Shown one piece after another: positions 13,490-20,562 of a DNA stretch of 64,000 nt; the first letter of the stretch is position 1; each line of letters begins with the position of its first letter. Location of the stretch: IMG/VR virus record IMGVR_UViG_3300020421_002453, positions 1 through 64,000 of that record; one strand, 5' to 3'. The notes beneath the pieces were generated by a model. The model made no database searches. It was not told the DNA's origin and saw nothing but the letters and a program-made list of their open reading frames with translations. The translations under genes and the position numbers were made by a program. This stretch comes from a virus.

Positions 13490-13642
13490 ATGGTTATAAA
13501 TTTTCTAAAGAGTATAGTTCAATCTTTGTATTTAAAAATATGGTTAAGAACCACAAGTGGAAAAGAGTACGCTAAGAAATACAAACGAAGAAGAAAAATG
13601 GAACTTGCACAAATATTAAAAGGAGAAAAAAATGAAAATTGA
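13490..13642 (+). CDS. Small basic hypothetical protein (50 aa; not in ORF track)
   Basis: MVINFLKSIVQSLYLKIWLRTTSGKEYAKKYKRRRKMELAQILKGEKNEN; fills the gap and overlaps the thyX start. Confidence 0.5.
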   Translation: MVINFLKSIVQSLYLKIWLRTTSGKEYAKKYKRRRKMELAQILKGEKNEN

Positions 13643-14324
13643 TGTATTAGATAAAGGATATATAGAATTAGTAGATACACTTGGTGATGATTTAACACCT
13701 GTAAATGCTGCTCGTGTATCATTTGGTGGTAGGAGTGATAAATTTGAAAATAAAGATAGAAAATTATCTAAGTTTTTAATTAAACACAAACACTTTTCAC
13801 CATTTAGACATCAACATGGTATGTTCATTATTAAAGCACCTGAGTTTGTGATGAGACAATGGTACAAACATGTCGTTGGTATTGAAACTACATCATCTCA
13901 TGTAACAAAAGACCATGCTTGGAATGAGATTAGTGGTAGGTATGTTCCATATGATGAATTTTATGAACCAACAGAGTTCAGAAAACAAAGTGATGATAAC
14001 AAACAGGCGAGTGATGGGTTAGTTGATAATCAAAAAGAGATGAAACAATTATGGACTATCTCTCAAATGAATTCCATTTCTGCCTATAAAGAAATGTTAA
14101 AGAGTGGTATGGCCAAAGAACAAGCTCGTAGTATATTACCACTTACAGTTTATACAAAGGTATGGTGGACGGCATCATTTCAAAGTGTTATGAATTTCAT
14201 TGAGTTAAGAGATGAACCAACATCACAAGTAGAAATTCAAGAATATGCTAAGGCATTGAAAGAAATTATGTTAGAGAAGTTTCCTGAAACAACAAAACTA
14301 TGGAGTGAAATATACTTAGATTGA
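13632..14324 (+). CDS. thyX: Flavin-dependent thymidylate synthase
   Basis: VNAARVSF, HFSPF, NEISGRY, AKEQARSILP and NFIELR...Q.EI motifs. Confidence 0.93.
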   Translation: MKIDVLDKGYIELVDTLGDDLTPVNAARVSFGGRSDKFENKDRKLSKFLIKHKHFSPFRHQHGMFIIKAPEFVMRQWYKHVVGIETTSSHVTKDHAWNEISGRYVPYDEFYEPTEFRKQSDDNKQASDGLVDNQKEMKQLWTISQMNSISAYKEMLKSGMAKEQARSILPLTVYTKVWWTASFQSVMNFIELRDEPTSQVEIQEYAKALKEIMLEKFPETTKLWSEIYLD

Positions 14325-15211
14325 TGACAGGTTGGATACTATATAAAAGAGATATTAAGGAATCATACGAAACTCAGAGATTAGTTGAAGAGTTTGAAAA
14401 ACAAGATATAAAAGTTCGTGTGGTTAATCCACAAGATGTAGATATCTATGTGGATAGGGATGATAGAAAAAGTATTCGTGTTGATGGTAAGGCGAGAGCA
14501 TTACCTGATTTTGTAATACCAAGAACTGGTAGTGGAACAACCTATTTTATAAAGGCAATTATTCGTCATTTAGAGAGGTTGGGAGTGATACTTATTAATG
14601 GTAGTGAATCTATTGATGCAGTTAAAGATAAGTTATACTCACAACAAATACTTGGACAATCAAATCTACCTGTACCTAAAACACTATTGGTGAAACATCC
14701 AATCGATGTTGAGTTTATTGAAAGTAGTTTAAACTATCCAATTATTGTTAAAACATTAAGTGGTTCATTTGGTGCTGGTGTATTCTTAGTTGAGAACAGA
14801 AAACAATTAAAACAATTGATGAGAATGGCCGAGATAACTAAACCAAGTTATAACATTATTATTCAAGAGTTTATTGAAGATTCATATGGAAAAGATTTAA
14901 GAGTATTTGTTTTGAATGGTAAAGTAGTGGGTTGTATGATGAGACAATCTACAGATGATGATTTTAGAGCAAACATCACAAGAGGTGGTGAGGGTATTCC
15001 TTATCAAATTACAGAAGAGATTGAGTTCTTAAGTGGTGAGTGTGCAAGATTATTAAACTTGGATATAGCAGGTGTTGACCTACTATTTAATGATGGTGGT
15101 TATAGTATCTGTGAAGTAAATTCATCACCTGGTTTTGAGGGGATGGATAAGTTCTGTAAAACAAACATTGCAGAACAAATAGTTACTTATGTAAAATACA
15201 AATTGGGTTAA
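14321..15211 (+). CDS. rimK: RimK-family ATP-grasp amino-acid ligase
   Basis: DKL..QQ, PIIVK..GS.G.GV, IIQEFI, DLRVFV, FRANITRGG, AGVDLL and EVNSSPGFEG motifs. Confidence 0.88.
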   Translation: MMTGWILYKRDIKESYETQRLVEEFEKQDIKVRVVNPQDVDIYVDRDDRKSIRVDGKARALPDFVIPRTGSGTTYFIKAIIRHLERLGVILINGSESIDAVKDKLYSQQILGQSNLPVPKTLLVKHPIDVEFIESSLNYPIIVKTLSGSFGAGVFLVENRKQLKQLMRMAEITKPSYNIIIQEFIEDSYGKDLRVFVLNGKVVGCMMRQSTDDDFRANITRGGEGIPYQITEEIEFLSGECARLLNLDIAGVDLLFNDGGYSICEVNSSPGFEGMDKFCKTNIAEQIVTYVKYKLG

Positions 15212-16495
15212 ATGGTTATAGTAAATTCTAAAGAGAAGTGGGTTTCATTACAAAAAAGAATGAAAACTCAACACTTCGTTTATCTACAGATATTATCGGA
15301 TGCAAACAAACATCCTAAACAGAATCGTGTGTCTTGTTTTCTTATCGTAACACCATTTGAAAAGTATATTGTTCCTGTAAATCATAATGAGAAGTGGGGA
15401 ACTATAGAAAAGTTTGATGTAGATGATAGTAAAGTATGTGTGGGTGATATGAAATCATTTAAACATAATTCAATGATTGAGTGTGATGATATATTTGGAT
15501 TAATAGATTTGAATTGGTGCCATTATATGAAAACAAATGAACCATATGATTTTGATAAACATCTAACAAATGCACATCATCATAATTACAGAGTACACTT
15601 TGAAAAGGATAATGTGAATGATATTATTCCTTTGGTAAAACATGGTGAGTATCTTTCAAATGTTGCAGATGAATTGATGGGTTATGTTGAAGATTGTGAT
15701 TACTATGACCAAAGTATCTTAGAAGTTTTATCTGATGTAGAGAGTAATGGAATACAAACTACAGATGGTATTGTGTATTCAGAATATAATCCATACACAA
15801 GTACAGGTAGACCATCAAACAGATTTGGTGGTATGAACTTTGCAGCTTTGAATAAAAAAGATGGTAGTAGAAAGAAGTTTATTAGTAGATTCGATAATGG
15901 TGTATTGGTTGAATTTGATTATGATGCATATCATCCAAGATTGATTGGTGAGAAAATAAACTATGAATTTCCTAAAGGTAATGTACATCAACACCTTGCA
16001 GATACTTATGGTTTAAGTTACGAAGATGGTAAAAAATTAACATTTAAGTACTTATATGGTGGAATATCTCAAGAAATTAAAGATAATCCTTTCTTTAGTG
16101 AGGTAGATGTGTATATAAAGGACTTGTGGAGTAAGTGGAAAGCTAATAAAATCATCAAATCTGATATTTATAATAGAGTGATAAGTAAAGAGAATTTACC
16201 TGATATGAATCCTAATAAGTTATTTAACTATATGATTCAGTTGATGGAGACAGAACATAATATTAATATATTAGATGAGTTTTTCTTTTATATGCAAAAG
16301 GAAACTTTTAAGAGTAAACTAATTCTCTACAATTATGATGCTTTTTTGTTTGATTTTGATTACAAAACTGATGGGTTAGAATATCTCAAGAAAGTAAAGA
16401 ATATTATAGAGTGTGATGGTAAGTATCCTACAAGAGTTTATATGGGAGATAATTATCATACTATGAATGAGATAACGGAGAAACTACTTGTATAA
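15212..16495 (+). CDS. Short family-A DNA polymerase-like protein
   Basis: TSTGRPS; motif A EFDYDAYHPRL; motif B K..F..LYG; motif C-like YNYDAF. Only 427 aa. Confidence 0.75.
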   Translation: MVIVNSKEKWVSLQKRMKTQHFVYLQILSDANKHPKQNRVSCFLIVTPFEKYIVPVNHNEKWGTIEKFDVDDSKVCVGDMKSFKHNSMIECDDIFGLIDLNWCHYMKTNEPYDFDKHLTNAHHHNYRVHFEKDNVNDIIPLVKHGEYLSNVADELMGYVEDCDYYDQSILEVLSDVESNGIQTTDGIVYSEYNPYTSTGRPSNRFGGMNFAALNKKDGSRKKFISRFDNGVLVEFDYDAYHPRLIGEKINYEFPKGNVHQHLADTYGLSYEDGKKLTFKYLYGGISQEIKDNPFFSEVDVYIKDLWSKWKANKIIKSDIYNRVISKENLPDMNPNKLFNYMIQLMETEHNINILDEFFFYMQKETFKSKLILYNYDAFLFDFDYKTDGLEYLKKVKNIIECDGKYPTRVYMGDNYHTMNEITEKLLV

Positions 16496-17333
16496 TTTGA
16501 AAGATATTTTATATGAATCTTTAAAGAGCTATCGACATATGAGACCATATATGCAATCTGAACTTGACCAAGAAGTTGATGAGTATCTTGATAATGAACA
16601 TACTAAAAGAAAACTTCCAAAGTTTTGGAAAGATAAAGATGATGGTTATTCAGATATCAAAACTGCTTTATATGAATTTCCAAGTGAAGAAGAGATTCGT
16701 TCATTAGAAAACTCTGATGCTGGTGAAATATTAGATTTAGCTCCAGAGGATAGAATGAAAGAAGCTATCTCAAGAGCTAAGAAATATGGTAAGGATTACA
16801 AGAGGATTATTCAAGGGTTAAAAACTCAAGAGAAGATTCCAGCACCTATAGTTGTGAGGGATAAATCAAAAAGATTATATTTATTAGGGGGAAATAGTAG
16901 ATTGATGTTAGGAATAGCATTAGGATTAAATTTACCTATAAAGATTATTGATTGGAAAAAAGAAATCCAAGAAAATATTTTAGAAATAAGTTCAGGACAT
17001 ATCTCAACAGCAGATGAGGGAGAACCAGATACAGGTTTTTCACCTGCAGGACAAACGAGAGTGTTGGGTGTGGATGATAGTAAACCAGAGCCTTGGTATA
17101 ATAAAGGTGGTTACTCTCAATTACATTATCCAAAAGCTGATGACCCATATGGTGGAAAGAAAGATAAAAAAACAATACAAGTACAAGTGATTAAAAAAAT
17201 TAAAAACACTGGTGAGAAGTACGAGGGATTCCAAGATGCAGTTGGTAGTTGGGATAAGTATGGTAGTACAGATTATTCTAATGATTTCGATTATGGGGAT
17301 TTAGTTGATATGTACACAGGAGATTCTAAATGA
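16488..17333 (+). CDS. ParB/Sulfiredoxin-like domain protein
   Basis: PAPIVV...YLLGGNSRL resembles the ParB-N core; N-terminal LKDILYE leader. Confidence 0.5.
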   Translation: MYNLKDILYESLKSYRHMRPYMQSELDQEVDEYLDNEHTKRKLPKFWKDKDDGYSDIKTALYEFPSEEEIRSLENSDAGEILDLAPEDRMKEAISRAKKYGKDYKRIIQGLKTQEKIPAPIVVRDKSKRLYLLGGNSRLMLGIALGLNLPIKIIDWKKEIQENILEISSGHISTADEGEPDTGFSPAGQTRVLGVDDSKPEPWYNKGGYSQLHYPKADDPYGGKKDKKTIQVQVIKKIKNTGEKYEGFQDAVGSWDKYGSTDYSNDFDYGDLVDMYTGDSK

Positions 17334-18679
17334 ATTGGGATAAAATATTAAACGAATTAAGTTACATTATTAAAGATGGAAGTCCAGACTTGACTAATGA
17401 ACAACATCTTATTAAATTATGGGATATTTTAAAAGAACATAATTGGAGTGTTGAGGCAAGAGTGGAATTATTAAATAACTTATCAGGTACTAAAATAGAA
17501 GAACCGATAGTGGAAGCTAAAGGTGATACATCTGCAACTACATTTTATCACGAAGTAATGACTGGTATATTAGTTGGTGGTGGTAATAGTTCGTTTAAAG
17601 ATGGTGAAGAGGTTGGAAAGTTTTTTAAGAATGGAACTATAAAGGCGGTAAATGCTGGATTAGGAACAGTCAAACCAGATGGTTCGGCTTGGGAAAGATT
17701 CTTACAAAAAGACTCAATACCAAAATCAGCATTAGTTTCAGATGCAAAAAACTTATCTACAAGAGTTAAAAAAGAGTTGGGTAAGGGTAAGAATATGATG
17801 TGGACTGGCCCAACAAATGATGGTTCTAAATTTGGAGCTGCTGATATTGCTGGTAACTTTAGTGGTTATGGTGATGTTGGTATATCATTAAAGGCTGGAG
17901 TTGGACAATTAAAGAATTTAACATTAGGTACTTTTACAAAAATATTAGGAATGCCTGAGTTAAAAGGTGCTGAATTTATAAAGAAATATAATAAAAACTT
18001 TAACTCAATGACCAAAGATTGGATGAAGTTAGTAGAGAAGTTATTTAATTCATTAACAAAAGATAAAGAAGCACAGAAGATATTTAAAAGACATTCAAAA
18101 TCATCTTGGGATGCATATCAAAAAGAAATATTAAAAGAAGATGAATTGAATATATTATCAGAGGCAGTTGGATTTCCTAAACAAAAGTATTCTGCAAAAA
18201 CAAAAAAGTTTAAATACTTCTGTAGAAAACTTCAAGAAAAACATCATCCACAATGGAAAGATTGGCAGGTAAAAAGAGGTAAACATTTCAACGATATATT
18301 TTCAGAATTGTTTTCTAAAGAAGAAAATAATATTAGAATGAACTTGAGTACTCTATTTAAAAGACAATTAAGTGTAGGAGATACAAGTTTATTTTATGCC
18401 GCTAAAGGTGGTAAAACATTTTGGTTTATACCAAGTGAGAAACTCTATGATAAACAAATGGGGCCAGATAAGTTTATTGCCGATTATGAACTACAAGAAT
18501 CACAGGCTGGATACAAATTTTTATTAGATGTTGGTACACAAGAGATGGGTGGTATCGGTACTATTATTATTGAGATTAGATTTTCTACAGGACAAATGGA
18601 TGGAGCACCATCAGTAAAATCAAGTTACAAATTAGTAACCAAAGATTGGTCTGGATTATTGGGGGCCTTTAGGAGATAA
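17330..18679 (+). CDS. Hypothetical protein with a PD-(D/E)xK/restriction-endonuclease-like motif
   Basis: HE...ADI...GISLK pattern; N-terminal KILNE...IVEA leader. Confidence 0.45.
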   Translation: MNWDKILNELSYIIKDGSPDLTNEQHLIKLWDILKEHNWSVEARVELLNNLSGTKIEEPIVEAKGDTSATTFYHEVMTGILVGGGNSSFKDGEEVGKFFKNGTIKAVNAGLGTVKPDGSAWERFLQKDSIPKSALVSDAKNLSTRVKKELGKGKNMMWTGPTNDGSKFGAADIAGNFSGYGDVGISLKAGVGQLKNLTLGTFTKILGMPELKGAEFIKKYNKNFNSMTKDWMKLVEKLFNSLTKDKEAQKIFKRHSKSSWDAYQKEILKEDELNILSEAVGFPKQKYSAKTKKFKYFCRKLQEKHHPQWKDWQVKRGKHFNDIFSELFSKEENNIRMNLSTLFKRQLSVGDTSLFYAAKGGKTFWFIPSEKLYDKQMGPDKFIADYELQESQAGYKFLLDVGTQEMGGIGTIIIEIRFSTGQMDGAPSVKSSYKLVTKDWSGLLGAFRR

Positions 18680-18680
18680 C

Positions 18681-19094
18681 ATGAGAACACAATTACTATG
18701 TACATTCACAAGGGTTCCAAAATTAAATGAAATAATAGATGTTATTGTATCATGCAATGATATTCTATTTGATAAGATATATGTTTTTAGTAACCAAAAT
18801 GACCCAACACAATTAATGTGTACTTACAATGTTGAGTTTATGGATAACTTTGAAGAGAACATTGAGAACACTATATCGTTACACAGAAAGAAACAATCAA
18901 ATACACTCTATACAATCAACGCATTGAATGAAGTTATCAGAGAAAAGAACGGTGGAGTTCTTGATAAATCATTTCAAGTAGATTGGTCAGAGTTTCAAAA
19001 CACATTGATATTAACTGCTGAAAGTGGATTGAATATCATACCTACAAAAATACATCAAATTGTCGATGTAAACGACTGGCAAAAGAAAATTTAA
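18681..19094 (+). CDS. Hypothetical phage protein
   Basis: AGGAG RBS; 137 aa with LLCTF and HRKKQSNTLYTINALN segments. Confidence 0.7.
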   Translation: MRTQLLCTFTRVPKLNEIIDVIVSCNDILFDKIYVFSNQNDPTQLMCTYNVEFMDNFEENIENTISLHRKKQSNTLYTINALNEVIREKNGGVLDKSFQVDWSEFQNTLILTAESGLNIIPTKIHQIVDVNDWQKKI

Positions 19095-19187
19095 AAAAAA
19101 ATTAACTTTTTGCAAAATAAATGCTATTTTGAGAATTTATATACATATATATTTATGTATCTAAAATGAGATACAAAGTTTTTTGAA

Positions 19188-19600
19188 AATTGAGAAATCG
19201 GAAAGTACTGAGAGTAATTAACTCGGTATGGGATTGGCTGAATAATGAGTATACTTCGGAAGCTCATAAGGCAATCACAGATTAGTTCGTGGTGAACCTA
19301 CTTAGGTGTAAATCATTTCGGTAGTTGAGACATCAATAATCAGAAGTACTTGAAGAAAAAAACAGAAACGATTCTGTTGACCTTGTTGTGGGTAAGGGTA
19401 ATACTGAAATCCCACTTAATGACTGAATAAACTAAACTCTGAGAGTTAAAGTAATGGCATAGAGGTTGTACTCGATTCAATGAGATTAACCATCTTGAGA
19501 ATCACTTTCATAACTGAAAGATGTTAGGTACAAGGTATAAAAAATCAGAGCTTCAAGTTGTAAGTAATCGTTAACCTTACATCCCCTAAGATTTCCAATT
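19188..19600 (+). ncRNA. Large multi-stem structured non-coding RNA of unknown class
   Basis: Lies in an ORF-free 700-bp gap. Closing stem, two perfect long-range helices (8 and 7 bp), at least 8 local hairpins including UUCG and GNRA loops, upstream TATTTAT motif and a downstream T-tailed inverted repeat. Confidence 0.7.
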
Positions 19601-19610
19601 AAAAATTTAT

Positions 19611-19683
19611 AAAAAAAAGGTTCAACCGTATTTTTAGTTTCCACTATATTAAAACTTTAAAAAACAACCGAACCTTTTTTTTT
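19611..19683 (+). terminator. Long inverted repeat with T-tail (terminator-like)
   Basis: AAAAAAAAGGTTC (19611-19623) pairs with GAACCTTTTTTTT (19670-19682) around a ~46-nt interior. Confidence 0.5.
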
Positions 19684-19797
19684 GCAAAAGGCAAGAAAAA
19701 ATTGATTTTAATCAATCAAGGTTATATTTATTAATGTATCGATAAATGATACGAATGATAAATGAATAATAAAACTAAACAAATAGGAGAATGAATA

Positions 19798-20562
19798 ATG
19801 GATTTAAATGCAATTAAAAAGCGACTTAATCAGTTACAAACCACAAACAATCGTACTTCCAGTCTTTGGAAACCACAACCAGGTAAAACACAAATTCGAA
19901 TAGTACCTTATGCTTTCAATAAAGATAATCCTTTTATTGAATTATTCTTCCATTACAATCTGAACAATCGTTCATATCTTTCACCAATTTCTTTTGGTAG
20001 ACCAGACCCAATCGAGGAGTTTGCTCAAAAACTAAAAGGAAGTGGTTCTAAGGAAGATTATCAATTAGCTCGTAAGTTAGAAGCTAAGATGAGAACTTTT
20101 GCACCAGTCATTGTAAGAGGAGAAGAAAAACAAGGTGTTAAATTTTGGGGATTTGGAAAGACAGTTTATCAAGAACTTCTTTCAATAATCGCTGACCCTG
20201 ATTATGGTGATATCACAGATGCAGTAAATGGTCGTGATGTAGTTGTTGAGTTCTTATCAGCAGAAGAGACGGGAGCATCGTTTCCTACAACAAAAATCCG
20301 AGTAAAACCTAATCAAACACCGATTTCAGATGAACCTGAAACTCTTGAATTGGTTAAAACCCAACAAGATATTAAGGAAATCTATCAAGAGTTATCTTAT
20401 GATGACCTTACAGATATTCTGAATGAGTGGTTGAATCCAAGTGATGATAACACAGATGGTGAAACTACTACTTCTAAAGAAGAAGTTTCTAAAACTGAAC
20501 TATCAAATGCTAAAGTGAAGAGTAATACTTCAGATGCCTTTGATGAATTGTTTAATTCATAA
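19798..20562 (+). CDS. Single-stranded DNA-binding protein (gp32-like)
   Basis: WKP..G...IRIVP, GVKFWGFGKTVY and DITD..NGRD motifs; acidic tail DAFDELFNS. Confidence 0.85.
   Translation: MDLNAIKKRLNQLQTTNNRTSSLWKPQPGKTQIRIVPYAFNKDNPFIELFFHYNLNNRSYLSPISFGRPDPIEEFAQKLKGSGSKEDYQLARKLEAKMRTFAPVIVRGEEKQGVKFWGFGKTVYQELLSIIADPDYGDITDAVNGRDVVVEFLSAEETGASFPTTKIRVKPNQTPISDEPETLELVKTQQDIKEIYQELSYDDLTDILNEWLNPSDDNTDGETTTSKEEVSKTELSNAKVKSNTSDAFDELFNS

Follow-up and report, generated by a model that had tools for sequence, protein, structure and literature searches.

The window analysed here is a stretch of 64,000 nucleotides (nt) from the virus record IMGVR_UViG_3300020421_002453 (73,096 bases; CheckV completeness 34%). 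It has a G+C content of about 31%, and the open reading frames (ORFs) read between 13.6 and 25.6 kb all lie on the + strand. Within this region a gap is bounded on one side by an ORF of 137 amino acids (aa) of no known family (p137, 18681-19094) and on the other by the gene for a gp32-like single-strand DNA-binding protein (ssb, 19798-20562), which is followed by genes for a RecA/UvsX-like recombinase, an exonuclease and a helicase. The stretch 19095-19797 contains no ORF of at least 40 aa on the + strand. A preliminary description of this DNA had placed a large structured non-coding RNA (ncRNA), possibly of a new class, in the gap at 19188-19600. We find that a conserved, structured RNA does lie there, and that it is very probably a single-chain, interlocked and strand-swapped pair of manA-family domains that share one hairpin.

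The sequence and the motifs described for 19188-19600 were all found at their coordinates. When the folding energy of each strand was compared with that of 100 shuffled controls, the + strand reached -96.4 kcal/mol (z -2.34), a value equalled by none of the shuffles, while the - strand reached -79.2 kcal/mol (z -0.74) and was equalled by 16, so that the + strand beats its controls and the - strand does not. Homologues came from a search of viral contigs with the ssb protein, in which the best 80 of 592 relatives were used and an intergenic blastn match was found in 34 of the 80 loci (68-100% identity; 500 nt or longer in 26), and from a pattern based on the sequence where the two units join, which yielded at least 117 further viral-contig stretches. 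Two alignments were analysed: A1, with 21 homologues, and A2, with 85 distinct full-length copies that are 63-100% identical to the window.

Both alignments show strong conservation of pairing together with compensatory change. On A1, RNAalifold predicted 87 pairs, 51 of them with a compensatory change, and independently recovered the helices named S2, X and Y below. For a structure of 101 pairs, 96.6% of the A1 cells were paired, as against 34.8-44.5% when the partners were slid; both sides had changed in 55 of the 101 pairs (9-16 when slid), and the covariation score was 0.480 (0.072-0.100 when slid). The corresponding values on A2 were 90.9% of cells (37.1-43.8%), 87 of 119 pairs (31-40) and a score of 0.499 (0.079-0.105). 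Since G-U and U-G cells outnumber A-C and C-A cells by 167 to 25, the RNA is read from the + strand, the orientation that the preliminary description had also drawn from G-U pairs. Its claim of a structured RNA on that strand is thus borne out by a conserved and covarying fold.

The proposal of a new class of large RNA fared differently, because the Rfam family manA (RF01745) matches both halves of the element. Across the whole window, the match at 19387-19585 scores 61.2 bits (gathering score 55.2; E 3.8e-13), which is over the cut-off and removes the novelty as a class, while the match to the 5' unit by itself (19206-19418) has 39.9 bits, below the gathering score. The two matches overlap at the GUGGG/CCCAC hairpin (19388-19415), and in the stronger of them the closing helix of the model (GGGaG/CuCCC) is deleted and the long hairpin is mostly mismatched. 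A manA scan of relatives, which took in 42 of 81 records, gave a match at E<=0.01 in 25 of the 42 and over the cut-off in 11; a second, upstream unit was found in six of the 42, overlapping the strong unit by about 31 nt in five of these six. This exposes a gap in the Rfam model, in that only one half of a double manA RNA passes the threshold. The RNA class is therefore already known, and its fused, strand-swapped double layout is the unusual part. As a large, highly structured ncRNA carried by a phage, the element is like GOLLD and ROOL, to which the preliminary description had compared it; it differs in that neither these families nor other large ornate RNAs gave a match at the gathering score in the window or at E<=10 in 18900-19900. 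The remaining Rfam rows in 18900-19900 were chance-level entries for small nucleolar RNAs and microRNAs (E 0.19-8.4, with scores far below the cut-offs) and were set aside. Neither a transfer RNA (tRNA) nor a transfer-messenger RNA was found in the window.

Much of the manA fold is present twice. The S3 hairpin with its CUGAAUAA internal loop occurs at 19237-19272 and again at 19422-19452, and the three-hairpin S4 junction occurs in both units; both copies of each covary, and both copies of S3 align to the model. The GUGGUG loop of the unit 1 junction is invariant in the 21 homologues of A1 and kept in most of the 85 sequences of A2, and the loop at this position in unit 2 is GUUGUA. Both sides have changed in 22 of 23 pairs of the unit 1 junction (helices 7-10, 80.8-98.6% paired) and in 21 of 26 pairs of the unit 2 junction (helices 17-20, 83.1-100% paired). 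The hairpin shared by the units has 100% of its cells paired, with compensatory change in two of five pairs, and the last hairpin likewise has 100% paired, with compensatory change in four of five.

The units depart from the canonical form in S5. A manA RNA has in each unit a local S5 hairpin of 7 base pairs (bp), an internal loop and 4 bp, and this is absent here. Instead, the 5' S5 strand of unit 1 pairs with the 3' S5 strand of unit 2 (helix X), and the 3' S5 strand of unit 1 pairs with the 5' S5 strand of unit 2 (helix Y). On A2, helix X has 96.6% of its cells paired and six of eight pairs compensatory, and helix Y has 97.8% paired and four of six pairs compensatory. The mean runs are 7.6 bp for X and 6.7 bp for Y, whereas the unswapped, local pairings of the same strands give mean runs of only 2.4-2.5 bp. 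The flanks of the S5 strands are homologous in the two units and agree with the model consensus (GUA ahead of each 5' strand, UUGURRGUAA behind each 3' strand). As the S5 strands pair between the units, we file the RNA as a variant manA architecture and not as two canonical members.

The S2 helix, which closes a manA domain, is present and covaries, but it lies around the two units together, and unit 2 lacks a separate one. GGGAU and AUCCC are paired in 100% of cells across the 85 sequences, with a change from G-C to A-U (GGAAU/AUUCC) in eight of them, and the nearer AUCCC at 19409-19413, which the model chooses for unit 1 alone, does not vary with GGGAU. A single manA closing helix therefore encloses both units; in an equivalent description, the core of unit 2 is nested within the long hairpin of unit 1. 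Outside S2 comes the closing helix of the preliminary description. By column, poor alignment of the flanks leaves only 53-73% of its cells paired; in a duplex test made sequence by sequence, in which at most 10% of shuffles may be as good, 17 of 19 and 74 of 85 sequences pass, which upholds this helix.

Table 1. Features of the double manA locus, with positions in the window.
Feature	Position	Strand	Remarks
Promoter-like block TTTTGRGAWTTT, 5-9 nt, invariant ATATATAT; A-tract 5' of it	19127-19152	+	conserved in 19 aligned upstream regions
Small hairpin GTATC/GATAC, at the position of boxB in a leader	19157-19174	+	stem letters vary, complementarity kept (by eye)
Near-invariant boxA-like element AGTTYTTTGAMAATT, overlapping the 5' strand of the closing helix	19177-19191	+	from homologue alignments
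Closing helix, 5' strand	19188-19199	+	pairs with 19590-19600; exact in the window
First hairpin (manA S1), loop with self-complementary UAAUUA	19205-19229	+	97.8% paired; 4/7 pairs compensatory
S2, 5' strand GGGAU, enclosing both units	19230-19234	+	pairs with AUCCC 19581-19585
Unit 1 S3 hairpin, CUGAAUAA internal loop	19237-19272	+	manA model; helices 5 and 6 94.5% and 100% paired; 8/9 pairs compensatory
Unit 1 S4 junction of three hairpins, loops including GUGGUG (near-invariant) and GACA	19279-19342	+	manA model
Helix X, 5' strand (unit 1 S5 5' strand)	19348-19355	+	pairs with 19551-19558 (unit 2 S5 3' strand)
Hairpin L1 (unit 1 S5 apex)	19361-19378	+	stem 79.6% paired; 3/7 pairs compensatory
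Helix Y, 5' strand (unit 1 S5 3' strand)	19380-19386	+	pairs with 19530-19536 (unit 2 S5 5' strand)
Shared hairpin GUGGG/CCCAC, near-invariant loop	19388-19415	+	model: unit 1 S6 and unit 2 S1
Unit 2 S3 hairpin, CUGAAUAA	19422-19452	+	helices 15 and 16 100% paired
Unit 2 S4 junction of three hairpins, loops GUUGUA, UUAACCAU and AUAACU	19455-19526	+	manA model
Last hairpin (unit 2 S6, UGUAAG/CUUACA), then AUCCC (S2 3' strand)	19559-19585	+	manA model
Closing helix, 3' strand	19590-19600	+	pairs with 19188-19199
Terminator-like long hairpin, then 9 T	19611-19683	+	A-run, variable G+C stem, conserved A+U-rich inner stem
Gene for gp32-like single-strand DNA-binding protein (ssb), context only	19798-20562	+	PF08804 49.8 bits; PHROG 1192

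Nine of the twelve helices listed in the preliminary description hold, including all three long-range ones (the closing helix, 19348-55/19551-58 and 19380-86/19530-36), while the other three, all local, yield to alternatives that covary. The local helices TACTGAG/CTCGGTA, TTGA/TCAA, GTGGG/CCCAC, CTTTCA/TGAAAG and TGTAAG/CTTACA were upheld, as were the outer pairs of AACAGAA/TTCTGTT. Among the displaced, the outer GATTG/CAATC was in the wrong register: the partner of G19237 is C19272, and GGGAT (19230-34) belongs with ATCCC (19581-85). The helix AACTC/GAGTT is specific to the window, its conserved form being AACT 19430-33/AGTT 19444-47 together with a pseudoknot, and GGTT..CTC/GAG..AACC gives way to GAG 19462-64/CTC 19471-73, beside which 19474-19504 forms a hairpin of its own. 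The GACA loop, which had been called a GNRA tetraloop, does not fit GNRA. A GAUU/AAUC helix predicted by RNAalifold (A1 columns 246-249/423-426) was rejected, being invariant and in competition with the covarying hairpin L1. In one relative, L014, helix X is broken and reduced to a 3-bp run (A1 columns 220-227 and 431-438); its 5' strand is that of one lineage (as in L027) and its 3' strand that of another (as in L012), and L014 looks like a recombinant or a chimeric contig.

Beyond the helices, two contacts between loops or unpaired strands were taken from a screen of covarying unpaired columns on A2, in which adjacent antiparallel pairs were kept and then counted against slid controls. In the contact K1, the L1 loop (ACGA, 19368-71) pairs with the loop of the last hairpin (UCGU, 19568-71) in 99.4% of cells over the 85 sequences, one position being A-U in 48 and G-C in 37 of them and the next C-G in 64, U-A in 20 and A-U in one. 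In the pseudoknot PK2, the unit 2 S3 loop (CUCUGA, 19437-42) pairs with UCAGAG (19545-50) in 100% of cells, with three of six pairs compensatory, in 38, 40 and 3 sequences. The slid controls for K1 and PK2 were 15-34% paired. The 3' strand of PK2 occupies the position expected for the S5 apex of unit 2, and the S5 and S6 loops, those joined in K1, are also complementary in the Rfam consensus and in the manA RNA of Synechococcus phage S-CREM1. A version of the screen that permitted one-sided G-U changes gave 4795 spurious column pairs and was discarded, and the further hits of the stricter screen, many of them clade-level correlations, were not retained. Complementarities between loops GUGGU (unit 1) and ACCAU (unit 2), and between GUUGU (unit 2) and RUAAC, hold consistently among homologues but are near-invariant and were not counted as evidence; four sequences alter both loops, which are then complementary only in another register (by eye).

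The loop of the first hairpin is self-complementary. A perfect palindrome of at least 6 nt is present in 65 of the 85 sequences, as against 13.0 expected from shuffled loops, and the forms seen are UAAUUA (57), UUAUAA (5) and GAUC (7); UUAUAA differs from UAAUUA by an exchange of positions 2 and 5 that keeps the palindrome. In the other long loops, palindromes occur in 6, 0, 1 and 18 of the 85 sequences, with 21.1 expected for the last. A palindromic loop is the signature expected if two chains pair with each other through this loop; with few independent events behind it, this is weak evidence.

The known manA RNAs offer a direct comparison. According to the text of Weinberg 2010 (PMC2864571), manA is a riboswitch candidate found in potential 5' untranslated regions (UTRs), and Rfam types RF01745 as Cis-reg. 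The canonical manA of S-CREM1 (OP535465 10215-10429) scores 96.6 bits and consists of one unit, in which the S5 hairpin is local. Like such canonical RNAs, the element described here has the CUGAAUAA internal loop, the GUGGUG three-hairpin junction, UUGUGGGUA at the last hairpin, the GGGAU/AUCCC helix, complementary S5 and S6 loops and a marine phage setting, and one of its halves scores over the Rfam cut-off. It differs in having two units in one chain with a shared hairpin and exchanged S5 strands, in the single S2 around both units with an extra outer closing helix, and in a unit 2 that is without the S5 apex and has the strand pseudoknotted with its own S3 loop instead; it is also about 400 nt long, compared with about 190-215. 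No double or tandem manA appears in the main texts of the manA literature searched, the supplements of which may show tandem cases. The S-CREM1 manA directly abuts tRNA-Leu and tRNA-Asn in an array of tRNAs, among which wcaG and abiF RNAs are found as well (OP535465 10132-10501), an arrangement that suggests release by tRNA processing and not a 5' UTR element.

A recent preprint (bioRxiv 10.64898/2026.07.01.735769) reports in its text, from cryo-electron microscopy (cryo-EM), that manA forms pentamer-based decamers and a 60-mer cage in vitro through kissing loops, with intermolecular contacts L5-L7', L8-L9' and L3-L8'; that text leaves the natural relevance of the assemblies open. If helices are numbered from 5' to 3', K1 corresponds in type to L8-L9 and PK2 to L3-L8. 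The assemblies in the preprint text differ in being built from single units of less than 200 nt through intermolecular contacts, whereas the units here are covalently joined, strand-swapped and known from sequence.

The RNA is flanked by signals of the kind that would mark a gene of its own. The promoter-like block upstream is the sole match to its pattern in the 64-kb window, where none is expected by chance. Between the block and the RNA come a small hairpin and the boxA-like element AGTTYTTTGAMAATT, which has its only exact match in the window at this place. This order resembles the boxB-boxA leaders of ribosomal RNA (rRNA) operons, in which a hairpin and then a conserved GTTYTTTGAMAA-type element stand directly 5' of a long untranslated structured RNA; it differs in that a phage leader here precedes a 400-nt RNA that is not rRNA, and binding of Nus factors is hypothetical. 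A scan of bacteria with the boxA-like 15-mer covered at least 120 stretches and 80 loci, and among the matches listed a homologue variant, GTTYTTTGACAATTT, lies 165-237 nt 5' of a 16S start in 3 of the 80. These three loci, with the 15-mer GTTCTTTGACAATTT, belong to two metagenome-assembled genomes of Planctomycetaceae and to one Rhizobiales genome. To judge from these positions, the 15-mer appears to be a genuine rRNA-leader element of the boxA type in some bacteria, across phyla, which the phage group would have copied or converged on. Using it to name a host was abandoned: the taxa are scattered, 11 marine-looking loci gave no Rfam match, and no host could be named.

Downstream, the terminator-like hairpin folds at z -3.81 in the window and at z -2.13 to -5.74 in five homologues, and the letters of its outer stem differ among homologues with complementarity retained (by eye). 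A simple terminator scan, whose calls did not exceed chance, missed this hairpin, the loop of which is beyond the limit of the scan; the hairpin and the promoter-like block were both recognised from alignments. At its apex the hairpin holds ATTTTTAGTTTCCAC (19630-19644), which all 21 homologues in the alignment share without change, although their outer stems vary freely. Such conservation is more than a plain terminator needs, and ATTTTTAGTTTCCAC may be a protein site, part of the 3' end of the mature RNA or a promoter element of ssb.

Metatranscriptomes also contain the RNA. Parts of a 2-kb stretch around it were found in 18 RNA-labelled marine or seawater runs from seven studies, and in all four runs examined, each from a separate study, contigs cover the RNA, from about 19208 to 19587. 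In two of these runs a single contig with 0 mismatches bridges both units (19215-19587 in X10 and 19208-19580 in X5); in X1 and X8 the RNA is covered in two pieces, and ssb is partly covered. The uncovered parts, 18667-19202 and 19605-19738, are uninformative, as one is of low complexity and contigs lose thin ends. Contigs of X1, X5 and X10 with loose ends within 19379-19478 represent several versions of this RNA that come from related phages. Marine RNA libraries therefore contain the RNA family at large and not just the copy in this genome.

The gene neighbourhood separates two groups of relatives. In the clade whose ssb is at least 80% identical, the spacing between the upstream ORF and ssb is 660-813 nt in 19 of 23 loci. 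The clade whose ssb identity is at most 74% has an ORF of 133-163 aa at 84-132 nt from ssb in 36 of 38 loci, and no manA match was found in the eight of eight records scanned. As this sister clade has the same gene pair without the RNA, the RNA and its signals form a cassette of about 600 nt that is dispensable to ssb. A close relative, L015 (2768-3000), with an ssb 84% identical, is also without the cassette; it keeps about 90 nt next to ssb and has a different, 111-aa ORF upstream. Among 110 RNA-bearing loci with room downstream, which are mutually related and include some contigs counted twice, the next gene is gp32-like in 100; in the other ten, three have a gene in between and seven have other genes, with no gp32-like match in the DNA examined. 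Only 31 of 95 loci with the RNA have a p137 homologue as the gene before it, and in the RNA-free clade that homologue adjoins ssb; the suggested partnership between the RNA and the 137-aa protein is not upheld.

Because of the flanking signals and the absence of the cassette from the sister clade, we read the RNA as its own gene and not as a switch of ssb. A stand-alone gene is likely the right description, in preference to a cis-regulator, and the preliminary claim of a stand-alone transcript agrees with the unique promoter-like block, the U-run hairpin, the confinement of contigs to the RNA in four of four studies and the cassette-free sister clade. On balance, the best explanation of the locus as a whole is an independently transcribed, stable ncRNA gene of about 380-415 nt, made of a fused manA pair and perhaps working in an architectural mode, in an uncultured marine phage. 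The RNA would be transcribed from its own promoter behind the boxA-like leader, which, as in rRNA operons, would guard an untranslated RNA against early termination, and transcription would stop at the U-run hairpin 5' of ssb. The transcript might be trimmed at the closing helix, given contig ends that fall 10-20 nt within it. The RNA would then act by its shape, associating with itself or with partners through loop-loop contacts, and would do so without any ligand-sensing switching of ssb.

Self-assembly as the working principle of such an RNA is plausible without being probable, and rests on analogy with the manA assemblies. A more specific form of the idea, which is doubtful, sees in the RNA a dimer of the cage-forming manA that occurs naturally as one chain with swapped strands; its units would be held in the loop-loop geometry of pentamer neighbours, and its palindromic loop would link chains into an RNA-only particle in infected cells. 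Were this true, the phage would make an RNA compartment or scaffold, and the quaternary structure that manA adopts in vitro would be its biological function. Fused units with exchanged strands and compensatory loop-loop contacts argue for selection on contacts between units. The double form thus bears on the natural role of assembly in manA, a riboswitch candidate of 2010 without a known ligand. It is also common, with at least 117 viral-contig stretches and a presence in marine metatranscriptomes of several studies, and its layout, with promoter-like block, boxA-like leader and terminator-like hairpin, resembles that of a gene of its own.

Several points weigh against this interpretation. The transcript evidence consists of contigs, which give no ends, strand or abundance, and RNA libraries can contain DNA; the contigs also stop some 10-20 nt short of the outer limits of the closing helix. 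A generic sigma-70 scan found five sites against 5.2 expected, not above chance, and the promoter-like block is unlike a recognisable sigma-70 site. The boxA reading is thin, with 3 of 80 among the matches listed and in bacteria not shown to be hosts. That 100 of 110 loci have a gp32-like gene next, in the same orientation, suits a cis-acting role as well as it suits synteny. As for assembly, the palindrome variants arose in few clades, A+U-rich loops easily become palindromic, and K1 and PK2 could lie within one chain, in which case they say nothing about association between chains. Our placement of the preprint's loop numbers on Rfam helices is an inference from its text, and the cages that the text describes were formed in vitro from RNAs of less than 200 nt, with no double manA among them.

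If the RNA were a cis-regulatory leader, it would be a double aptamer of the riboswitch kind, deciding at the U-run hairpin whether transcription reads through into ssb. The Cis-reg type in Rfam and the riboswitch candidacy in the text of Weinberg 2010 favour this, as do the order of RNA, terminator-like hairpin and ssb on one strand and the gp32-like gene that so often comes next. Against it, the sister clade has the ssb gene pair without the RNA, and L015 keeps the DNA nearest ssb without it; in ten loci the RNA is followed by an intervening gene or by other genes; the canonical manA of S-CREM1 sits between two tRNA genes; and a boxA-like leader is what stable RNAs have. That no contig joins the RNA to ssb also speaks against read-through, a weak point given the low complexity of the stretch. 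Overall we regard such a leader as unlikely. All the evidence for a stand-alone gene would apply equally to a monomeric decoy, sponge or scaffold for a protein of host or phage, such as a nuclease, an RNA-binding defence protein or the neighbouring replication proteins. The near-invariant loops GGUAAGGGUAA, GUGGUG, GUUGUA and UAACC could mark contacts with protein or RNA, and both tertiary contacts may be intrachain. Against this, any partner is hypothetical, the upstream neighbour varies, with the p137 homologue there in a minority of loci, and the palindromic loop and the manA assemblies in the preprint's text point to association between RNAs; we consider this reading rather improbable.

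Two further possibilities fit the data poorly. Each half aligns to the whole manA model, as would be expected of two tandem manA RNAs that are excised separately and fold canonically. This is very improbable, given that covariation in helices X and Y links one half to the other while local S5 runs stay at 2.4-2.5 bp, that a single S2 spans both halves with compensatory change in eight sequences while the near AUCCC (19409-13) does not covary, that one hairpin is shared, and that RNA contigs bridge both units. The other possibility is an element acting as DNA, such as a replication origin or an array of protein-binding sites, for which one could cite the position at the head of the replication module, before ssb, the RecA/UvsX-like recombinase, the exonuclease and the helicase, and the A+T-rich flanks. 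We give it hardly any credence: G-U pairs preserve the pairing on the + strand alone (167 against 25 cells), the - strand folds no better than shuffles, an RNA-family covariance model matches, and contigs from RNA libraries are confined to the RNA and leave the upstream gene uncovered. The independently transcribed, fused manA pair remains the reading that we prefer.

Regarding the phage itself, the nearest isolate is Microcystis phage Mel-JY01 (RecA 54% identical), in which no manA match was found, and a DNA search of a phage collection gave no more than a single short match of 74%, inside ssb. Judged from this nearest isolate, the phage carrying the RNA appears not to be a T4-like cyanophage. 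Further upstream in the window, 15212-18679 holds three ORFs of no Pfam or PHROG family, and these lie 3' of a ThyX thymidylate synthase gene (PF02511) and a RimK-like ATP-grasp ligase gene (PF08443, 176.5 bits) that follow one another with overlapping stop and start at 13632-15211.

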